From the NCBI GenBank assembly GCA_965250005.1, contig OZ252279.1:900001-932000 (forward strand): a stretch of 32,000 nt of DNA. Direction: 5' to 3'. Below the pieces are notes generated by a model. It did no database searches and was not told the DNA's origin. It was given only the letters and a program-made list of their open reading frames with translations. The translations under genes and the position numbers were made by a program. This DNA is from Demequinaceae bacterium (GTDB lineage: Bacteria; Actinomycetota; Actinomycetes; Actinomycetales; Demequinaceae). This document shows positions 8,047 through 17,908 of the stretch, piece after piece. Every line of letters starts with the position of its first letter. Positions within the stretch are counted from its first letter, which is position 1.

Positions 8047-8969
8047 CCCGCTTCATTGACGAGCACAAGGGTCGTTTCGGGGTTGAGCTCATCTGCCGGG
8101 TGTTACGCGTGGCGGTTCGTGGATTTGTCACCTCGCGCGGTTATCGCGCCGCTAAGACGCGTCCACCGTCCGTGCGTGCCCTGCGTGATGGTCTGCTTGT
8201 GTCCGAGGTGGTCCGGTTGCATGCAGAGAACTACGGCGTGTACGGGAGGCGGAAAATGCATGCGCTGCTGAAGCGGCAAGGCTGGCAGGTTGGGCGGGAC
8301 CAGACCGAGCGACTCATGCGCTTGGCAGGTGTTCGGGGTGTGAAACGCTCGAAGAAAGTGTTTACGACCAAGAGTGATCCTGCTGCCGCCAAGCCGCAGG
8401 ATCTTGTGCAACGCCGGTTCACTGCACCAGCACCGCGCCGTTTGTGGGTCGCGGACATCACCTACGTCGCGACCTGGTCCGGTTTCGCTTACGTCGCGTT
8501 CGTCACCGACGTCTACTCACGCAGGATCGTCGGATGGAACGTCGCATCGACCCTGCAGACTGACATCCTGCCTTTGCGGACGCTCGACATGGCCGCCTGG
8601 GACGCGGCAGGCGACCTCGCTGGCCTCGTCCATCATGCCGACCACGGCTCAAACTATTTGGCTACGGTCTACACCGACCGCGTCATCGAGCTCGGTGCGA
8701 AACCTTCCACCGGCTCGGTCGGCGACTCATATGACAATGCCCTCGCCGAGGCCATCAACGGCCTCTACAAAACAGAACTCATCCGCCAGCAAGGGCCCTG
8801 GCGCACCGTCGAACAAGTCGAGTTCGCGACCCTCGAATACGTGTGGTGGTGGAACAACAAACGACTCCACGGCGAACTCGACATGCACACCCCCGTCGAG
8901 ATCGAACAGGCGTACTACGCTGGCCAAGAATCAACCCAACCGGCATCCGCCGGACAGGGAAACACCTAG
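8043..8969 (+). CDS. IS3-family transposase OrfB (DDE integrase core, rve domain); probably made as an OrfAB fusion
   Basis: 308-aa ORF: FGVELICRVL, WVADITYV, HHADHGSNYLA, DNALAEAINGLYKTE, NNKRLHGEL. It is in the -1 frame relative to orfA, and that frame is open from 7986. Confidence 0.9.
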   Translation: MTRFIDEHKGRFGVELICRVLRVAVRGFVTSRGYRAAKTRPPSVRALRDGLLVSEVVRLHAENYGVYGRRKMHALLKRQGWQVGRDQTERLMRLAGVRGVKRSKKVFTTKSDPAAAKPQDLVQRRFTAPAPRRLWVADITYVATWSGFAYVAFVTDVYSRRIVGWNVASTLQTDILPLRTLDMAAWDAAGDLAGLVHHADHGSNYLATVYTDRVIELGAKPSTGSVGDSYDNALAEAINGLYKTELIRQQGPWRTVEQVEFATLEYVWWWNNKRLHGELDMHTPVEIEQAYYAGQESTQPASAGQGNT

Positions 8970-9075: not shown

Positions 9076-9351
9076 TCAGTCGCCAGTGTCGAACGTCCGA
9101 GGCGGATCTTGGCGCAGCAGCAGGTACGCAGCTGCAACCGAATCCGCGAGAACTGGCGCCGCACCGGGATACTCAGCCTCGACAACCCGCATCACGGCTC
9201 CAGCCGACTCCGCCCCTCGAACAGCACTGGCAAGTCGGTTCGCTTCCGAATCGTACTCGTCCAGAGGTGCAGACACTGTGCGCCCCATGTCCGCCGGGTC
9301 AACCAGGTAAAGAAGGCGGCTTACCAAGCGCGCGAAATTGTCCATGGGCAA
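9076..9351 (-). CDS. Putative cognate immunity protein of the RHS C-terminal toxin
   Basis: Small ORF starting 13-19 nt after the RHS stop. GGGAGG (complement of 9356-9361) lies immediately after that stop. The start is TTG 9351 or ATG 9345 (MDNFARLVSRLLYLVDPADMGRTVSAPLDEYDSEANRLA...). The call rests on position and size. I did not recognise a family with certainty. Confidence 0.55.
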   Translation of the reverse strand: MPMDNFARLVSRLLYLVDPADMGRTVSAPLDEYDSEANRLASAVRGAESAGAVMRVVEAEYPGAAPVLADSVAAAYLLLRQDPPRTFDTGD

Positions 9352-9363
9352 ACTGCCTCCCTA

Positions 9364-12300
9364 TTAGGCATCATTAAGGATACTCAGAATCTTCGACTCG
9401 AACTCAGCTCTGGTCCAAACTGTCACGACCGCCCCCGATTGATCGAGTACGACAGCGGCCTGGTCTGTCAAGTAGAGGTACTTTCCGTTGGATTGCTGGA
9501 GGACCACGCGCGGCGAGCGCACCGTTTCAACGATCAGCGAAGGCGACGCGCCCCGTTCGATTGCGCGATTGAGAAAGTGAAATGGGTCCTTCGGGTTCGC
9601 GTGGGATATACCTGTGATGTTTAGGAACGGCGGCTGGACCACCTTGCTCGTTCCGTTCGCATACATCTGCCCTAGATTTCGCGGGGCGTAGAGCGCGGTC
9701 TTAGCAAGAGTGTCAACGATAACTCCGTCGGAGCCCGCGATGAACCGAGCGGCTGGCTGCGTGGTAACGGCACCGCCAGGCACCGCCGCCGCCGCAGGAC
9801 GCGCGACGCTAGCGACGCGTGCGGCTTCCGCTATGCGGGCGGCTTCGGCGACTCGCGAAACTTCGACAGTGCGAACAAGTTGGGCGGTTCGTGCTGTCGC
9901 AGCTGCGACCTCGACGCCTCGAGCAACCCTTGTGCCAGCAGCGGCCAGGCCTCCAGGGACGAAGAACAACCCAGCTAGCGCTACCCCCTCGCCGACGCCT
10001 TGACCACACTTATCAAACTGGCCATCCCGGCACGCATCCAGAGTCGGGCCGAACGTGTAGTCCCGGTAGACTTGATATCCGCTGTCCCAGTAATCGCCGA
10101 TGGACGCATCCCCGGAGAACACGTCCTCCAGAACGTCATTGTGTTCTATCGCCCTAAGTGCCAACCCCATCGCCAAGTCTCGCGCCTCGTCGCGTGCCTC
10201 CTGGGAACACGTCTGCATGCCGGACCACCCGCCGGCAATGCACTTCACATTCTCCACCAGCATTGGGTAGGGGGTGAGGCCTGCAAGTACCTTTCCAACA
10301 CCAATAGCCCCATTTCTCAGAAAGGTGACCGCGTTGTAGACAACCAGGCTCTCGTTCTCCACCCGAATGGCGAGCTGCTCTGCTTCCCACTTCAGATGAA
10401 TGTCTTGACGCTCCAACGCCTTCAGGTAATCTTCGTGAGCTTCCCGATAGGCCTTAGCCTCACGCTCGTAAACAGCTTGCTGGAAGTGAACACCACCCAC
10501 ACCGGTTGCCATTTGGCTCGCAATCGGCGCCAACACGGCTCTGACCGCTGGATCCAAGTTCGCGGTCAAGTTGTTGTAGATCTTCAACATGTCCGCGGCC
10601 GACGTGCCCTGCAAGTGGTTGACCGCAACACCGTAGAGGTTTCCAAGTGAACCCAACGCAGACTGCAACTGTGCATTCAACGCCGCCAACTGTTGTGCCC
10701 GCAGTGCGGCTGCTGCGCGAAAGAATCCGAGGATGTCGATATATGTTTCGGGGGCACCCTCAACATAGGTGTACCGGTTCAGGGACGATGCACGTGTGAC
10801 CGTGCCGCGGTAGCGGTCATCCTGGACCCACACCCGAGAACCAATGTCATAAGACCTCGACGCAAACTCGAGCAACCCTGCCGTATCGACTTGACCGGTG
10901 AACCCCGTCACCGTGTCTTGGGACGTGTCTGTCAGCAGGTCACCGAAGTCACCGTAGAGCGCAAGATCCGCAGAAATCACCCCATCAGAGGCGGTCGTCA
11001 CAGCCGATCCCAGCAGGTCCGCCAGCACATCCACCGTCTGGATCGAGGTCGTGGCGTTCTTGCCCTTGCCCGACGTCACCATCGTGGCCTCAAACAACAC
11101 CGCACCACCCGGGCCACGTGTGAGCTGCGTGTCGCCGTCACGGACCACTGAAAGCCCGTCATACAGGCGGGTGCGGTCCGTGCCGTCTTCAGACACCTCA
11201 AGAGCCCGGCCAATACCGTCACGGCCATAAGCCACGTCCGTGTCGCCACCGGCTACTGAACTGACCAGATCGCGACCATCATACGTATACGCCACATCGG
11301 AAACCGTGTGCGTCTTCTTACCCGACGTCGTGGTCGTCAACGCCTGCGTGCGGTTACCCCGTGCGTCATACGTGTACGCCGTGGTCTCCGTCTTGGACGC
11401 CGGCATCACGGCCGGGTCCATCGCAGATGACGTCAGTTGGTTGATCGCGTTCACAGAGCGGGTGACGGTGTAACCGTCGTTCTTCTTGTTGGTCGACAGG
11501 TCCTCAGAGACCGCCTCAAACACCATGTTCGAGGCCGCATCCCACCCATAGGACGCCACATAGTCACCAGTGACGGACTCCGTCAAACGACCCAGCTCAT
11601 CATGCGTGTAGTCCGTGAGCGTGGATGCCTCATCCGTGGACAGCTCCCGCTCGTCCACCAGGCCACGCGCGTCATACGCATACTCGAACGCCAACGTCCC
11701 AGTCGAACAACCCGCAGGCTGCTGATTCGGGTGACCATTACCGTTGTCCTTGCAATGCCCAAACGCATTCCCCGGAGCCATCGAAGACGGATTCACCTCA
11801 CCCGAAGGCAACTTATTACCCACAACACCCTCACCGGCGTGAACAATCGCCGTCACCCGACCCACCAGGTCGCGCGAAATCTCTGTCTCCACACCCGACG
11901 GGCGGAGGATACCGACCAAGGCACCAACCTCGTCGTAACCAAACGCGGCGACACCGTTCGCATCCGACTGCGACACCGCAAGGTTGCGCGCATCGTACGT
12001 GCGCAGCAGCGAGCGGCCATCGTCGTACGCCACCCGCGTCTGATTGCCTGCGAGGTCGTACTGGTTCGTGTTCTTCTGGCCAAGCGCGTCCACGGCGACC
12101 GTGACCCGTGAGGCCCAGTCGTACGTCCACGACGAGGTGCCGAGATCGTCGGTCATCGACGTGCGGTTGCCCAGCGCGTCAAAGCCGGATGTCACCGTCT
12201 GGTCCGGATACGCGACCTCAACCGCGTAGCCATCAGCCGAGAACGTGGTGGCCGTCACCGAACCGTCCGGTGCGGTCACCACGGACGGGCGGCCCAGGGC

Positions 12301-15300
12301 GTCGAAGTCGACGGTGCTGGTTTGACCGAGCGCGTCTGTTTCTGTCTCCACGCGGCCGAGCGCGTCGCGCACAAACGTCGTGGCGTTGCCGCGCGGGTCG
12401 ACTGTCGCGACTGCGTCGCCGCGGGCGTCGTAGCTCACCGAGGTCGTCACGTTGACGGACTCGCTGGACGGCTCGGCCGGCAAGAAGTTCTCGACTGTCT
12501 CGGTCAGGAGGTTGCGCACGTCATAGGTGAAGTGGGTAGCGATACCCGAGGGGTCTATCGCTTCGGTGATGTTGCCTGCCGTGTCGTACGCCTGCGTGCG
12601 GGTTTCGCCTTCGGCGTTGGTGGTTGACACGAGCCTGTTCATCACGTCATAGACGAACCCGGTGGTCCCACCGCGGGCGTCCGTCGTTGACAGGCGGTTG
12701 CCGCCCGCGTCGTAGGTTGCGGTCGTGGCGAAGCCTGCTGCGTCGAGGACGAGCGTCGGGCGACCAAGCGCGTCATATGTGACGGCGGTGGTGTTTCCTC
12801 GGGCGTCGGTCGTGGCGACTTCGCGTCCCAGGGCGTCGCGCGCGGTCTCAGTACGGCCGCCGTCAGGGAGCACCGTAGCAATCGCGCGGCCTGCGGCGTC
12901 GTATTCGGTGGCAAGGACATCGCCGAGCGCGTTGGTGATTGAGGTGGTGTTTCCGTTGGCGTCGTAGCCGTACTGGCTTGTGGCGCCTTCGGGAGTGGTC
13001 ATGGTGACCATACGCTGCATGGCGTCGTAGGTGTACGCGGTGGTGTCGCCTAGGGCGTTGGTGGATGTAATCATCTGTCCGAGCGCGTCGTAGGCGAAAG
13101 TGCTCTGGGAGCCGACGGCGTTGACCACGGCGACGGGGCGCGAGGCCGCATCGTATTGCGCTGTTGAACGGGCGCTGAGGGGGTCAACCGAAGCCGTGAC
13201 GTTGCCGCGCGAGTCGTACTCGGTGAGCCAGCGTTCACCCGCGGTATCAACGCTCGCGACCTGAAGGCCACGCGCGTCGTATTCGTAGGACATCGCGTTG
13301 CCGCGCTGATCGGTTGACGTCACCTTCAGGCCACCGGCGTCGTAGACGTTGCTGGCGGTGGTGCCATCCGCGAACGTCGATCCGACCGGACGCCCGAGCG
13401 AGTCGTACGTAAGGGACGTAGTCTGGCCGAGCGCGTTTGTGGTGGACGTGCGCGCACCGATTGCGTCGTAGGTGAACGTCGTGGCGCCAGCCAGCGCATC
13501 CGTCAGGCCGACTATGCGCGACAGTGCGTCATAGGTCGCCTCAGTCCGGTTCCCTAGTGGGTCCACCGTTGCGGTCGCGTTGCCTAGCGCATCAAATTCG
13601 GTGGCCCATGTGCCGCCAAGGGTGTCTGTGCGCGACACCATGCGGTCCAGCGGGTCAAGCAGGTAGGTCTCCGTGAAGCCGCGCTGGTTGGTAAACGAGG
13701 TCACGTTGCCGTTGGCGTCGTATCCGTACGCCACTGCGGCGGTGTCCGGGGTGGTGACCGTGACCATGCGCCCCATCACGTCAAATGCGTACTCGACCGT
13801 GTTGCCGAGCGCGTTCGTCGCAGACGTCATCTGCCCTGCAGCGTCGTATGTGAACGCGGTGCGTGCGCCCACCTGGTCGGTGGTCGCTACCCGGCGCGAG
13901 AGTGCGTCGTAGTCAAACTCGGTCCGCCCGCCGGCGGGGTCGATGTTCGCCACTAGGTTCCCGCGCGAGTCGTACTCGGACAGCCAGCGTTCGCCGGCCT
14001 CGTCCACCATCGCCGTTTGCATGCTGCGGGCGTCGTACTCGTAGGCGGTAGCGAATCCGCGCGTCCCCACCGTCCCGACCGCTAGACCGCGGGCGTTGTA
14101 CGTGGTGCTGGCCGTGGAGCCGTCCGGGTACGTGGTGCGGGTGAGGCGACCGAGCGCGTCGTACGCGTAGTTGACGGCGTTGCCGTTCTTGTTTGTCTCC
14201 GAGGTGGCGCGGCCTACCGCGTCGAACGTGAAGGTCGCGTGAGCGCCGAGCGCGTCAGTGGTCGCGACCAGGCGCGAAAGCGCATCGTATTCGATTTCCG
14301 TGCGGTTGCCGAGCGCGTCAACCGTCGCGGTCGTGTTGCCAAGCGCGTCGTATTCGGTGCGCCAAAGGTTGCCGAGCGCGTCGGTCATGGAAACCTCGCG
14401 ACCGAGCGCGTCCAGTTGATACGTCTGCGTGAAGCCGCGAGCGTTAGTGGCCGACACGAGCCGGCCGTTCGCGTCGTAACTGTAGAAGCGGGTCTCGCCG
14501 TCCGGCGTGGTCACCGACTCCAGTCGGCCCATCGCGTCGTAACTGTAACTCGACGTGCGGCCAAGCGCATCCGTTTGGCTCCCAGCGGCACCGCCGGGTA
14601 GGTACGTGACAGTGTCGGAATTGCCGAGTGCGTCGGTGAACGTCACCGGGCGCGACATGGCGTCGAACGCGGTCGCGTTGCGCGCGCCGCTTGGGTCGAT
14701 TGCTGCGACGGGGTTGCCAATCGCGTCGTATTCCGTGAGCCACCGCTCGCCTGCCTCGTCCACCATGACGGTGGCGCGGCCCAGGCCGTCGTACTCCCAC
14801 GTGCGGCTCGTGCCGTCCGGGTTGGTCTGCGCGACCATGCGGTGCTCCGCGTCGTACGCGTACTCCATGCGTGAGCCGTCGGCGCGGTTCGCTGCGGTGA
14901 GCTGGAGGTTGACGTTGTATTCGTAGGTTGCTGTTTCGCCAGCCTCGTTAGTTTCACTCACGAGCGAGTCGTTGACGTCATAAACAAACGTGGCGACGCC
15001 GCCGAGGGCGTCGAGGGTGCTGATCAGGTTATCGGCAGCGTCGTACGCAAGAGTGGTCAGGGCGCCCTTCGCGTCGGTGACCGACGTGAGGCGGTTCGCC
15101 AGGTCGTACGTACGTGCCGTGACGTGGCCCAGCGCATCCGTAGAGGTGACAGAGTTTCCCCGCCAGTCGTAGGCCATAGTGGTCACGCCGCCGGTCGCAT
15201 CCGTGATGCTTGTCATATCGCCGTGCGCGTCGAAGGACGCATACGTGACGGTGCCGTCGGGCAAGTGAGTCTCGGTGGCGCGGCCGTCCTCGTTGAGGAC

Positions 15301-17658
15301 GAAGCTGGTGGTAGCGGTGCCGCCGTTCGGGTCAGGGCTGCTGATGGACACCAGGTCGCCCCGGCTGTTGTAGCCGTACGTGGTGGTCTCGCCCACGGCG
15401 TTGGTGGACGACGTCACCCGGCCATACACATCAAACTCCGACGTGTAGACATTTCCATTGGCATCCGTCGAGGTGTTCGGGTTGTAGAACTCGTCGTAAC
15501 CGTTAAGCGTCACACCGCCCTCGGCGTCGAGGGCCCGGACCACCTGGTTCTTGTCGTTGTGCGTCAGCGTGCTCGCGTTGCCGAGGGCATCGGTGAGCGT
15601 TGTTTCACGGTTAGGGCCGTAGGCGATAGTGCGAACATAGCCCGCACCATCAGTCTGGATGACCACGCGCTCCTCGGTATCGAACACGTTGGTTAGCTCG
15701 GCCACGCCGTCGGCGCCCGTGACAACCTCAAGCAGACCGCCCGCGTTATACGCGAAAGACCGAGTCCGGCCTGCTCCATCCATGATCGACGTGAGATTAC
15801 CCGCAGCATCATAGGCGAGCATCCACTGACGGCCATCCGGATGCGTGAAGCCTGTGATGCGACCCTCGGGGGTGGACTGGACCGCGACCATCTGGCCAGC
15901 CTGGTCCGTGATGCTCAAGAGCGGCGGGAACGTGTACTCGCCTTCCGCGGCCTCGGCGAGCGGTCCATAAACCAGCGTGTAGGCGTTGCCTTGGCGGTCC
16001 ACCGCGCGGGCCAGCGTTCCGTACCCGGACTCCTCGTCGAACGTGAACTCCAGCGACGTATTGTCGGCAAAGGTCAGCACAGCTCCGCCCTCGACCGCGG
16101 CCAAAGTGCTGCGCGCGCCGGGAGGCGTCACGAACCCGCCGGCGCCGTCGGACTCAAAGAACACGCTGCGACCGTCCGCGAGGATCGCCATGACAGCGCC
16201 GTTGTCATACAACTGCGCCCGGGACGAATACCCGAAGTTCCAACCGTTGCCAACCGGTGAAACGCGCCCATCAAGCGCGTTGTAGGCGAGGGTCAGGTCG
16301 ATGGCCTGGTCGCCGACGCCGGAGAGGGTGAACACCTCTTCTGAGGCAAGGAAGTTACCTGTCGCGAGGTTGACGGGGTCCGTGCCATAAATCTGGTAGT
16401 TGTTTTCGCCCAGCTGAGCGAGATCGTCGAGCACGTCTTGCGTGGGCGGCGTCGGCAGTGTCACGGGCTCGGCGCAGGCGATCCCGCCCGTTGCTTCGAT
16501 TTGCTGAATGATGCTGGAGTACACAGCGTCGGTCACCAAATCAAGCCGCGTGCTGATAATCGGCCAGTCGTAGTTGTGGCTGAGGAACAGGAGTTCTGCG
16601 TGTGCGTACGCCGGGGCCGACCCGACGAGCTGGCTGTAAGGCAACACCGAACTTGGAGGGTTGAGCCCGCGGCGGTCGGGGCGCCCCGTCCAGTTCACAA
16701 TCTGAGTCTTGGTGTTGTTACCCAGCCGGGTGCTCGCGCTGTTGCTCGCAGACCACGCGACCACTCCGCCGTCCCTGCTGATACCCCACGGGCGGGCGAT
16801 GCCATCCGACGCGGTGTTGTAGTTATTGAATGCGAGGGTCATCGCGATATCCGCGTCGAAGTTCCGGATGCGGTTTGAGCGAGTAGTCCGCGCAACAAAT
16901 GCCGTCGAGGAATTACGGGTGATGAGGACTTCTGCCAAGCATTCGTTCTCGAGCCTGGCCTTGACGGCGGTTGCGACAGCGTGGCTGAACTGAAGCTCGT
17001 TGTACACGTGCCCATTCCACAGGGCCCTGCCAAGCGCATCATCTGGGTCCAACGCGATGCGCGGGATGGTCGGGTCCGGCACGGCTGCGGCTGGTGCCGC
17101 CATAACAATGAACTCACTCAAATGATCCGACTGCGCAACCACGGCACCCAGTTCCGGGTCGTAGGCCGAGGGGACCCACGTCCACTCGTCATCTTCCGAC
17201 TCGCGGGAGTAGACACCGAGGGAGGCCACATCGACCTCCGACAACTGCTCTTCAGAGATGGGGAAGGTCAACTCGATGGCAGGAACAAACTCAGAGACAT
17301 AGGCCGGAGTGTCCTCGGTCTCCTCGACAACAGTCACCTGGTGCTCGAACTCCGTGACGTCCCCGCCCACAGCATCCGTCGCAACAATCGACACGCCGTC
17401 AGTCAGAGACACGACCGCACCATCGGCGGTCTCGGCAGTCGCGCCCTCCACCTCGATGGGCTCCGCCTCGACGGTCGCACCGTCCGTGGCCTGGTCAACC
17501 ACATTGAAATCCACCTCGCCACCCTCAGGCAAAGCGATGCTGGTGGACTCACCCTCGACCAGCAGTGAGTCATCCGTGGCATAGACCGGAGTGACGACGC
17601 CAGCGACTAGCGCGGCGGTCAGAGTGGTAGTCAGGGCAAAGCGAACGGCGGTGGACAT
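9364..17658 (-). CDS. Secreted YD-repeat / RHS-family polymorphic toxin (about 2764 aa)
   Basis: The track ORF is 9364..17697 with a TTG start. I prefer ATG 17658, which has GAGGGGA 5 nt upstream. That gives a Sec signal, MSTAVRFALTTTLTAALVAGVVTPVYA/TDD. Downstream are a DUF6531-type DPVNLATGNF motif, dozens of YD repeats (xYxYDxxGxL/R), and the RHS core end motif NRYTYVEGAPETYIDILGF (PxxxxDxxGx). About 450 aa of variable C-terminus follow. Confidence 0.92.
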   Translation of the reverse strand: MSTAVRFALTTTLTAALVAGVVTPVYATDDSLLVEGESTSIALPEGGEVDFNVVDQATDGATVEAEPIEVEGATAETADGAVVSLTDGVSIVATDAVGGDVTEFEHQVTVVEETEDTPAYVSEFVPAIELTFPISEEQLSEVDVASLGVYSRESEDDEWTWVPSAYDPELGAVVAQSDHLSEFIVMAAPAAAVPDPTIPRIALDPDDALGRALWNGHVYNELQFSHAVATAVKARLENECLAEVLITRNSSTAFVARTTRSNRIRNFDADIAMTLAFNNYNTASDGIARPWGISRDGGVVAWSASNSASTRLGNNTKTQIVNWTGRPDRRGLNPPSSVLPYSQLVGSAPAYAHAELLFLSHNYDWPIISTRLDLVTDAVYSSIIQQIEATGGIACAEPVTLPTPPTQDVLDDLAQLGENNYQIYGTDPVNLATGNFLASEEVFTLSGVGDQAIDLTLAYNALDGRVSPVGNGWNFGYSSRAQLYDNGAVMAILADGRSVFFESDGAGGFVTPPGARSTLAAVEGGAVLTFADNTSLEFTFDEESGYGTLARAVDRQGNAYTLVYGPLAEAAEGEYTFPPLLSITDQAGQMVAVQSTPEGRITGFTHPDGRQWMLAYDAAGNLTSIMDGAGRTRSFAYNAGGLLEVVTGADGVAELTNVFDTEERVVIQTDGAGYVRTIAYGPNRETTLTDALGNASTLTHNDKNQVVRALDAEGGVTLNGYDEFYNPNTSTDANGNVYTSEFDVYGRVTSSTNAVGETTTYGYNSRGDLVSISSPDPNGGTATTSFVLNEDGRATETHLPDGTVTYASFDAHGDMTSITDATGGVTTMAYDWRGNSVTSTDALGHVTARTYDLANRLTSVTDAKGALTTLAYDAADNLISTLDALGGVATFVYDVNDSLVSETNEAGETATYEYNVNLQLTAANRADGSRMEYAYDAEHRMVAQTNPDGTSRTWEYDGLGRATVMVDEAGERWLTEYDAIGNPVAAIDPSGARNATAFDAMSRPVTFTDALGNSDTVTYLPGGAAGSQTDALGRTSSYSYDAMGRLESVTTPDGETRFYSYDANGRLVSATNARGFTQTYQLDALGREVSMTDALGNLWRTEYDALGNTTATVDALGNRTEIEYDALSRLVATTDALGAHATFTFDAVGRATSETNKNGNAVNYAYDALGRLTRTTYPDGSTASTTYNARGLAVGTVGTRGFATAYEYDARSMQTAMVDEAGERWLSEYDSRGNLVANIDPAGGRTEFDYDALSRRVATTDQVGARTAFTYDAAGQMTSATNALGNTVEYAFDVMGRMVTVTTPDTAAVAYGYDANGNVTSFTNQRGFTETYLLDPLDRMVSRTDTLGGTWATEFDALGNATATVDPLGNRTEATYDALSRIVGLTDALAGATTFTYDAIGARTSTTNALGQTTSLTYDSLGRPVGSTFADGTTASNVYDAGGLKVTSTDQRGNAMSYEYDARGLQVASVDTAGERWLTEYDSRGNVTASVDPLSARSTAQYDAASRPVAVVNAVGSQSTFAYDALGQMITSTNALGDTTAYTYDAMQRMVTMTTPEGATSQYGYDANGNTTSITNALGDVLATEYDAAGRAIATVLPDGGRTETARDALGREVATTDARGNTTAVTYDALGRPTLVLDAAGFATTATYDAGGNRLSTTDARGGTTGFVYDVMNRLVSTTNAEGETRTQAYDTAGNITEAIDPSGIATHFTYDVRNLLTETVENFLPAEPSSESVNVTTSVSYDARGDAVATVDPRGNATTFVRDALGRVETETDALGQTSTVDFDALGRPSVVTAPDGSVTATTFSADGYAVEVAYPDQTVTSGFDALGNRTSMTDDLGTSSWTYDWASRVTVAVDALGQKNTNQYDLAGNQTRVAYDDGRSLLRTYDARNLAVSQSDANGVAAFGYDEVGALVGILRPSGVETEISRDLVGRVTAIVHAGEGVVGNKLPSGEVNPSSMAPGNAFGHCKDNGNGHPNQQPAGCSTGTLAFEYAYDARGLVDERELSTDEASTLTDYTHDELGRLTESVTGDYVASYGWDAASNMVFEAVSEDLSTNKKNDGYTVTRSVNAINQLTSSAMDPAVMPASKTETTAYTYDARGNRTQALTTTTSGKKTHTVSDVAYTYDGRDLVSSVAGGDTDVAYGRDGIGRALEVSEDGTDRTRLYDGLSVVRDGDTQLTRGPGGAVLFEATMVTSGKGKNATTSIQTVDVLADLLGSAVTTASDGVISADLALYGDFGDLLTDTSQDTVTGFTGQVDTAGLLEFASRSYDIGSRVWVQDDRYRGTVTRASSLNRYTYVEGAPETYIDILGFFRAAAALRAQQLAALNAQLQSALGSLGNLYGVAVNHLQGTSAADMLKIYNNLTANLDPAVRAVLAPIASQMATGVGGVHFQQAVYEREAKAYREAHEDYLKALERQDIHLKWEAEQLAIRVENESLVVYNAVTFLRNGAIGVGKVLAGLTPYPMLVENVKCIAGGWSGMQTCSQEARDEARDLAMGLALRAIEHNDVLEDVFSGDASIGDYWDSGYQVYRDYTFGPTLDACRDGQFDKCGQGVGEGVALAGLFFVPGGLAAAGTRVARGVEVAAATARTAQLVRTVEVSRVAEAARIAEAARVASVARPAAAAVPGGAVTTQPAARFIAGSDGVIVDTLAKTALYAPRNLGQMYANGTSKVVQPPFLNITGISHANPKDPFHFLNRAIERGASPSLIVETVRSPRVVLQQSNGKYLYLTDQAAVVLDQSGAVVTVWTRAEFESKILSILNDA
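9367..10722 (-). other. Variable C-terminal (toxin) region of the RHS protein, downstream of the DILGF core boundary
   Basis: IDILGF is encoded by the complement of 10723-10740. About 452 aa follow, comprising a helical segment, a Cys-containing segment with a Gly-rich hydrophobic stretch, an Ala-rich linker and a terminal domain of about 135 aa (complement of about 9367-9770). That terminal domain contains FHFLNRAIERGAS...VVTVW. Confidence 0.7.
12930..14765 (-). repeat. Tandem super-repeat of about 756 bp (252 aa), about 2.4 copies, inside the YD-repeat region
   Basis: Units start at DEAGERWL(T/S)EYD: complement of about 14760, 14005 and 13245. The protein units are colinear (EAGERWLTEYDAIGNPVAAIDPSGAR... 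/ EAGERWLSEYDSRGNLVANIDPAGGR... / AGERWLTEYDSRGNVTASVDPLSAR...). At the DNA level, an identical 18-mer CGCGCGAGTCGTACTCGG occurs at copies 2 and 3. Confidence 0.7.
16492..17064 (-). other. Amidase_3 (MurNAc-L-Ala amidase)-like domain with substituted metal ligands, inside the RHS N-terminal region
   Basis: Track-ORF residues about 212-402. IALDPDDALG stands where amidase_3 has DPGHGG. NELQFSHAVA retains the Glu. ADIAMTLAFNN stands where the family has ADLFxSIHANA. AHAELLFLSHNYD retains the Glu of the E.GF.SN motif. This is recognition from memory, not an HMM hit. Confidence 0.4.
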
Positions 17659-17908
17659 AATTCCCCTCAGGAACTGTCGGTTTCCGAGAAACAACAATAG
17701 CGTTCGGTTGAGACTATGACAGAGGTGACGCGAATTGTCTCAGCGAAAATCTGCGGGCCGATCAAATACTCGGTCCAGTTTGACACCATTCGTGACGTAA
17801 CACCCCAACAATATCGGCTCCGAAACTCTCCAACGCGTGACCAAAATCACAATGAAATGCCGCGATTATCAGGCACCTGTGGATTAAAGGGGATAAGTGC
17901 GGCGGCGG

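Follow-up and report, generated by a model that had tools for sequence, protein, structure and literature searches.

A long, modular cargo with a predicted RNase tip in an RHS polymorphic toxin of a Demequinaceae bacterium

RHS/YD-repeat polymorphic toxins, such as proteobacterial Rhs proteins, Bacillus WapA and the Tc-toxin protein TcC, share the repeats themselves, an Rhs core that ends in a PxxxxDxxG[LF] motif with both of its aspartates, a polymorphic tip with an immunity gene, and orphan cassettes in related loci. Typical Rhs tips are about 130-200 amino acids (aa) long, and natural Tc cargos weigh 35 kDa or less. In the two-domain C-terminal regions (CTs) of CdiA proteins, an N-terminal cytoplasm-entry domain, which relies for import on a specific membrane protein of the target, is exchanged independently of the toxin tip, and only the tip is tracked by the immunity gene; PT-TG (PF14449), PT-VENN and PT-HINT likewise stand between a delivery region and toxins of many types. 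Among the tips, Ntox49 was described as a predicted BECR-fold toxin with a conserved ‘H, [KR]’ signature, with RHS proteins among its carriers and Imm22 listed as its immunity protein (Zhang et al., 2012). DUF4258 overlaps Ntox49 and falls in a colicin-like BECR branch (2026 preprint), and its activity is listed as unknown (Gerdes, 2025). Here we analyse an RHS gene in a 32,000-nucleotide stretch of a Demequinaceae genome (assembly GCA_965250005.1, contig OZ252279.1, positions 900,001 to 932,000, hereafter the window; coordinates below count from its first letter). The carrier is in itself a standard polymorphic toxin of the RHS type, and pre-toxin or entry domains are a familiar concept. What stands out is the cargo: a tip that belongs to a new, sub-threshold sub-family of a known toxin class, an unannotated immunity family, and an unannotated organisation of leader, module and spacer ahead of the tip. 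We give a probability of roughly 0.6 to the reading that leader and module bring a BECR-like RNase tip into a target cell and that a 91-aa protein protects siblings.

The RHS gene (9364..17697, minus strand) is an uninterrupted open reading frame (ORF) of 2777 aa counted from a TTG codon, and its true start is likely the ATG at 17658, which is followed by a stretch judged by eye to resemble a signal peptide (MSTAVRFALTTTLTAALVAGVVTPVYA). In a Pfam scan, the protein matched RHS_repeat (PF05593) at E 1.4e-192 over 36 stretches and DUF6531 at residues 440-514. Among NCBIfam models it matched TIGR01643 (E 3.9e-162) and the Rhs_assc_core model TIGR03696 (residues 2248-2324, 40.3 bits versus a cut-off of 32.5). 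The Rhs core closes with the predicted self-cleavage motif PETYIDILGF (10723..10752, minus; residues 2316-2325), the PxxxxDxxG[LF] form of the Rhs motif PxxxxDPxGL, which is kept as PESFVDVLGF in at least 20 related CTs. The repeats, the Rhs core boundary, the variable tip and the downstream immunity gene identify the gene as an RHS/YD polymorphic toxin. The aspartates of QDDR and of IDILGF are both found in the protein, and by analogy with solved Rhs and Tc structures it would cleave itself at this C-terminal motif. The shell region (residues 515-2325; 10723-16154, minus) is very long at 1811 aa, a further difference from typical Rhs proteins.

Exactly 452 residues remain after IDILGF (residues 2320-2325; window 10740-10723), and we number this CT from the first residue after that string. 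The earlier sequence-only reading had put the length at about 452 aa, and every string it quoted is located as stated: LRAQQLAALN begins at CT 7, VKCIAGGWSGMQTC lies at CT 159-172, LDACRDGQFDKC at CT 228-239, GVALAGLFFVPGGLAAAG at CT 246-263, the Ala-rich stretch at CT 291-317, FHFLNRAIERGAS at CT 381-393 and VVTVW at CT 432-436. It had also called the region unusually long, which is true against proteobacterial Rhs tips but not within this actinobacterial lineage, where CTs of 285-528 aa are the rule and related RHS genes encode 1900-2700 aa or more. The layout consists of a helical leader, a swappable helical module, an Ala-rich spacer and a predicted RNase tip. Because each part is conserved in independent sequences, the four-part division proposed from the sequence is more than chance, although its borders needed redrawing. 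The first part, taken as one helical stretch of about 110 aa, is indeed helical but comprises two units, a clade-wide constant CT 1 to about 85 and a segment (CT 86-135) that joins the following Cys-containing module. The terminal domain, estimated at about 135 aa, is real, but its conserved portion covers only about 108 aa. The cargo as a whole has a mass of 48.0 kDa and an isoelectric point (pI) of 6.04. A word-index protein search with the whole CT returned two proteins, a 12-sequence profile three and the 135-aa tip none; PDB sequence searches with CT, toxin, pre-toxin and immunity profiles gave no credible match, and tblastn against plasmids gave one RHS match only.

The tip (9367..9690, minus; CT 345-452, about 108 aa) is an Ntox49/DUF4258-like domain with a predicted BECR fold. 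Searched with HMMER against 1.84 billion representative proteins, the 452-aa region had 255 matches at E≤1e-3. Of the 152 proteins retrieved, 136 matched the terminal 108 or so residues alone, in proteins of 66-2957 aa. The match stops no more than 12 residues from the C-terminus in 129 of the 136. The carriers include RHS proteins, a CdiA protein with PT-VENN and DUF6862, and small proteins with a signal-peptide-like N-terminus. This C-terminal placement on three kinds of carrier identifies the domain, at the level of sequence, as a bona fide and widely used toxin tip. Across the 136 sequences H382, R390, G391, P404, Q410, G430 and T434 are near-invariant, with H382 kept in 126 of 133, R390 in 133 of 135 and G391 in 112 of 136; H382, R390, Q410 and T434 are each retained in at least 126 of 133-136. 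H382 and R390 correspond to the Ntox49 signature. The middle arginine of the H-x3-R-x3-RG motif, R386, alternates with glutamine (59 Arg, 69 Gln).

The sequence-only reading had recognised a DUF4258-like motif here, and this recognition stands in part. When family members were scanned singly, 18 of 42 matched DUF4258 (PF14076), the best at E 8.9e-5, and the five matches with alignments examined cover profile positions 1-33 of 71, over the H..R..RG helices; the scores read lie below the cut-off, the window sequence itself goes unmatched and the middle arginine is variable. By Pfam's own threshold the tip is outside PF14076. An AlphaFold2 (AF2) model built on a 42-sequence alignment has a predicted local distance difference test score (pLDDT) of 96.4 and a predicted template modelling score (pTM) of 0.89, with the order strand, two helices, four strands, helix. 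Its top PDB neighbours in Foldseek are the colicin D tRNase, the CdiA-CT of E. coli NC101, RelE-type toxins and another CdiA-CT. Among BFVD predicted viral structures it matches phage proteins of 69-85 aa at E 8e-4 to 5e-3 with probability 1.0, one of them an 85-aa protein named ‘Colicin D’. The tip resembles Ntox49/DUF4258 in the histidine at the start of helix 1, the Arg-Gly at its end, the modelled alpha-alpha-beta4 core, the small size and basic character (pI 9.2), and the carriage on RHS, CdiA and phage-related proteins. It differs from DUF4258 in an extra N-terminal strand and C-terminal helix, in scores below the cut-off and in an immunity protein other than Imm22. Sequence and model together make the tip a divergent Ntox49/DUF4258-like domain, most likely with RNase activity.

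The cognate immunity gene (9076..9351, minus) encodes 91 aa and starts 12 nucleotides after the RHS stop codon. Its product is acidic, with a pI of 4.4 compared to 9.2 for the toxin domain. Homologous ORFs of 93-96 aa stand directly after the same toxin domain behind the RHS genes of loci L004 and L006 and in the orphan cassette of L005/L009, and a homologous ORF takes the same position behind a small secreted toxin in L002/L010. They share the motif (L/V)LYxxDPxxMGxxxxAPxDEY, and pairwise blastp to the window ORF gave E values of 1e-8 to 1e-10. A profile of three homologues found only this ORF among the 485 ORFs of the window (E 7.6e-11). The family thus stands directly behind the toxin in five independent locus groups, the window included, and the pairing was seen in all loci searched with downstream DNA bar one divergent sub-family (L007). 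Toxin and immunity genes are linked. The window ORF and its three homologues matched nothing in Pfam (at E≤10), NCBIfam or PDB, and an exact look-up of the immunity protein also returned nothing.

In L007 (8550-8747), the ORF behind a toxin sub-family marked by ‘SQW’ (P0026, an RHS protein) encodes an unrelated Cys-rich product of 65 aa in place of the LYxxDP family. In L010, three consecutive small ORFs (1589-2353, 2592-3239 and 3661-4287; the same cassettes recur in L002/L011) have a signal-peptide-like N-terminus and a shared leader of about 100 aa (..AYDG..H..HTN...SVAANS) with different tips, and the first of them encodes the window's type of DUF4258-like toxin, with a member of the window's immunity family behind it. 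The trio may represent a distinct family of short secreted polymorphic toxins.

At the other end of the cargo lies the constant helical leader (10468..10722, minus; CT 1-85; FRAAAALRAQQLAALNAQLQSAL...DPAVRAVL...QQ), which RHS proteins of Demequinaceae-like Actinomycetota share irrespective of the toxin that stands behind it. Homologues were found in P0004, P0080, P0082, P0101, P0110, P0130, P0150 and P0153 and in genome loci L013-L021, and in many proteins that differ widely farther downstream the leader follows PESFVDVLGF. A genome scan placed it in Demequinaceae, Demequina, Cellulomonas, metagenome-assembled genomes (MAGs) of other Actinomycetota and one MAG labelled Coriobacteriia; Firmicute and proteobacterial matches were confined to the end of the RHS core. 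Compared with P0004, identity is 85-95% through the RHS core and up to about CT 30, near 60% up to about CT 75 and at background past about CT 85. The variable cassette therefore starts about 85 residues after the boundary motif rather than at it, unlike typical Rhs proteins, where sequence conservation stops at the motif. AF2 predicts helices at CT 2-36, 42-52 and 58-74. Orphan cassettes in related loci begin inside the leader, at profile positions 44-54, so that the leader is at least a homology handle for cassette exchange.

In related genomes a main rhs gene is followed by orphan cassettes in L013 (2942-17089), L018 (2482-13993) and L001 (3864-11574). Most of them retain a short fragment of RHS core together with the leader, others (for example P0001 in L001) start within the leader, and one cassette in L013 is frameshifted inside it. 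The window has no orphan toxin cassettes; the related loci L001, L009, L013 and L018 have one to three.

Behind the leader comes a swappable pre-toxin unit that we call module A (9928..10467, minus; CT 86-265, about 180 aa, all-helical). It contains a long helix (EDYLKALERQDIHLKWEAEQLAIRVENESL), two cysteine pairs (C161/C172 and C231/C239) and a Gly-rich hydrophobic end, and its core motifs are RNxxIGVGK, CxAGGWSxMxxC, WDxxYQxxRDxTxGPTxDAC and DKCGQG. Conservation is strong in P0001, P0002, P0003, L009, L012 and L020 and weaker in P0008, P0009, P0010 and P0132; the module moves as a single unit in L009 and, more diverged, in P0009. The CT has no cysteines other than the four of the module, the whole protein has eight, and the four flank two predicted helix-turn-helix junctions. 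It is plausible that they form two disulfide staples in an exported protein. The divergent copies P0009 and P0132 lack some of the cysteines and L012 lacks one of the second pair; joint loss of that pair in P0009 and P0132 had been considered as evidence for disulfides and was dropped because L012 lost only one cysteine. A model of CT 1-318 from 18 sequences is all-helical, with pLDDT 77-93 over the Cys core (CT 160-245) and poor definition of both hydrophobic stretches. Module A, like the leader and the spacer, had no match in Pfam, NCBIfam or PDB sequences, and the pre-toxin model had no Foldseek neighbour in PDB, in keeping with the earlier statement that no named family is recognisable in the three parts ahead of the tip. 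A genome scan with module-A patterns gave no confirmed locus; L020 later showed one genome with the module.

The Gly-rich hydrophobic stretch that ends module A (GVALAGLFFVPGGLAAAG; 9934..9987, minus; CT 246-263) contains the most hydrophobic 19-residue Kyte-Doolittle window (KD19) of the CT, and pLDDT is below 50 over CT 248-284. It had been proposed as a stretch that could insert into a membrane; at a KD19 of 1.58 it is only borderline for such a span. At least four types of middle module (A-D) occur in the lineage, each ending in a Gly-rich hydrophobic ...[LIV]PG segment (KD19 1.25-1.86) that is usually followed by an Ala-rich segment. The motif G[DN][YF]..G..hydrophobic..PG was considered as a PT-TG domain, a reading that was dropped when Pfam gave no support. 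At E≤10 the PT-TG hidden Markov model matched neither the CT, module A alone nor the other middle-module types, and PT-VENN and PT-HINT likewise had no match in module A. Module A shares with those domains its place between delivery region and toxin, and its company of many toxin types; it is unlike them in being confidently helical in its Cys core and in having four conserved cysteines.

An Ala-rich helical spacer (9772..9927, minus; CT 266-317; ..VAEAARIAEAARVASVARPAAAAVPGG) joins module A to the tip region. It is 33% alanine and is modelled as a helix over 269-312, with pLDDT reaching 75-78 over CT 290-310. The repetitive linker noted earlier is thus present, and the same repeat type recurs in homologues in other copy numbers: the (E/A)AAR-type repeats number about two in the window, three (ARVAEV) in L020, about six in P0009 and more than eight (AARALE) in L009. 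A tandem repeat at the DNA level was rejected, the sole call (period 10, 1.9 copies, 19 nucleotides at 9769-9787) only clipping the last codons of the spacer. Between spacer and tip lies a variable lead-in (9691..9771, minus; CT 318-344) that aligns poorly among family members.

Modules and tips shuffle independently. Eleven CTs with module A have 11 tips that show no pairwise similarity (blastp, E≤0.01), and the toxin and immunity pair of the window is found behind a type B middle module (IEENGW...) in P0007/L005/L009 and, in L010, with neither RHS nor middle module. P0010 has module A attached to a CdiA tRNase-like tip, a match just below the cut-off. Other tips found behind the leader include a NucA/NucB DNase (E 4e-16) and an ADP-ribosyl cyclase-type NADase (29.1 bits, above its cut-off), and there are weak, sub-threshold matches to ColE5-like and TNT-like tips. 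A single immunity gene follows the tip, not the middle module. The type of tip shows a weak correlation with its company, in that nuclease and NADase tips have a middle module and an Ala-rich spacer, whereas five HExxH tips stand behind the leader with no middle module. HExxH tips joined to the leader, with neither middle module nor Ala-rich spacer, were seen in the main CT of L013, in L016, L017, P0153 and P0082, and in L012 (2721-3752); one copy gave a weak Pfam match to the zincin-like eCIS_core domain (E 1.4e-3). The arrangement is like that of two-domain CdiA-CTs in the independent recombination of pre-toxin module and tip and in the immunity gene that goes with the tip, and unlike it in having an RHS carrier, three pre-toxin elements (leader, module and spacer) instead of one, and a target envelope that is presumably Gram-positive.

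These features suggest how the toxin may work. The signal-peptide-like N-terminus suggests that the RHS protein is exported, and with both aspartate positions present it would undergo aspartyl self-cleavage at the DxxG[LF] motif. Once cut, the cargo would stay associated with the shell up to contact with a target, when leader and middle module would carry the toxin to and across the target's cytoplasmic membrane, by analogy with the entry domains of CdiA-CTs and the translocation domains of colicins. In the target cytoplasm the basic toxin domain would cleave RNA, probably tRNA, and sibling cells would be protected by the acidic 91-aa immunity protein. The entry step is the one we infer with most caution. 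It had been proposed from the sequence by analogy, and it would fit the independent shuffling of modules and tips, an immunity gene that follows the tip, and the weak correlation of cytoplasm-acting tips with modules. More tentatively, it is possible, though we would not expect it, that the leader and the interchangeable modules, of which there are at least four, are dedicated devices for importing cytoplasm-acting enzymes into Gram-positive (actinobacterial) targets, and that the enlarged shell of about 1800 aa evolved for cargos of 30-55 kDa.

Several points weigh against the reading of leader, module and spacer as an entry apparatus for an RNase. With a KD19 of 1.58 the hydrophobic stretch barely qualifies as a candidate membrane span and is of low AF2 confidence, and the pre-toxin model is mediocre overall (pLDDT 69, pTM 0.33). 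A large study of PT-TG points to the pre-toxin domain as a cleavage substrate rather than to translocation. Tc cargos are about 20-35 kDa, with pI ≥8 and the net positive charge that Tc translocation requires, and the largest natural one is 35.1 kDa (PMC6868009); a cargo of 48.0 kDa and pI 6.04 falls outside both the size and the charge criteria, and therefore it should not be taken for granted that the shell encloses and releases it. On the side of the tip, the DUF4258 scores of the five examined matches reach 20.6 bits at most against a gathering cut-off of 25 bits, the toxin domain of the window has no Pfam match at E≤10, the PDB Foldseek matches are non-significant (best E 0.27, TM-score about 0.4), and the immunity family is distinct from Imm22, which is the listed partner of Ntox49.

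Some of these points lend themselves to the main rival account, in which leader, module and spacer act on the producer side by filling, plugging or holding the cargo in the shell, or as a release device that serves as a protease substrate. The leader comes directly after the cleavage motif and is conserved along with the shell across the lineage, the shell itself is unusually long at 1811 aa, and Tc work indicates that cargo size and steric pressure affect function. The proposal that pre-toxin domains are cleavage substrates would suit a release device, and the low AF2 confidence of the hydrophobic stretches is as expected for segments that do not fold autonomously. Pure filler, however, has no need of four conserved cysteines or of IGVGK, AGGWS and DKCGQG, HExxH tips in the same shells do without a middle module, and the same toxin occurs on CdiA and small secreted proteins that lack the three parts, so that we consider a producer-side role unlikely, if well short of negligible. 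The Gly-rich hydrophobic stretches could also belong to a second, membrane-damaging toxin, giving the cargo two toxic activities; RHS proteins with pore-forming cargos exist, Tse5 reportedly being one. This seems to us very improbable, since each cassette has one small soluble immunity gene that matches the tip and not the module, no candidate for a membrane-protein immunity lies downstream of the window gene, and the hydrophobicity is borderline.

Doubt about the tip itself takes the form that its activity is something other than RNase, or that its likeness to DUF4258 and the BECR fold is convergent. The sequence matches with scores read are all sub-threshold and stop halfway through the DUF4258 profile, PDB Foldseek E values are 0.27 or higher, and DUF4258 has its own activity listed as unknown. 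Against this stand a domain that is consistently C-terminal on toxin delivery proteins with an immunity gene adjoining, a topology and top structural neighbours that are all those of BECR RNases, and conserved H, R, Q and T residues on a basic domain, and we judge the non-RNase alternative improbable. That the long C-terminal region is an artefact, a gene fusion through sequencing error or a decayed pseudogene, is scarcely credible: the point in its favour is an IS3 element shortly downstream, but the window ORF is uninterrupted, genomes and metagenomes supply more than 20 independent CTs with the same order of parts, and the immunity gene is intact. The reading we prefer remains that of an RHS cargo whose forward parts may serve entry and whose tip is probably an RNase.

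The gene sits in a chromosomal housekeeping setting, with ligA directly upstream, followed by mnmA- and iscS-like genes, and with RidA and sugar kinase genes downstream of the RHS locus. The window context of the RHS gene contains no type VI secretion system, type VII secretion system or TcA gene, and GC content shows no clear difference between CT and RHS core. The insertion sequence of the IS3 family (7726-8969, plus strand; orfA 7726..8046, orfB 8043..8969) lies 107 nucleotides past the end of the immunity ORF, and an IS3 element also adjoins the module-A cassette in L012. Between the signal-peptide-like start and DUF6531 lie about 400 N-terminal residues (about 42-440; window 16375-17574, minus) in which no Pfam or NCBIfam family was matched; the first 150 or so are acidic, with Val, Glu, Thr and Asp abundant.

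The lineage offers a natural swap set, in which one shell and leader are combined with several modules and many tips and one toxin stands behind different modules, and the contribution of each part is directly testable by competition assays. It also holds an Ntox49/DUF4258-like sub-family that current Pfam thresholds miss and an immunity family with no counterpart in Pfam, NCBIfam or PDB. An RHS cargo of 48 kDa, above the known natural size for Tc cargos, bears on the engineering of RHS/Tc cocoons as protein delivery capsules. The long shell and the cargos of 285-528 aa may reflect a larger cocoon for larger cargo, and a shell enlarged to package the cargos of import modules, if that is what it is, would be a natural answer to the question of whether added repeats raise cocoon capacity. 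Entry of protein toxins into Gram-positive cells has been described in review as poorly understood, and as candidates for bringing RHS toxins into such cells the swappable modules are of interest.

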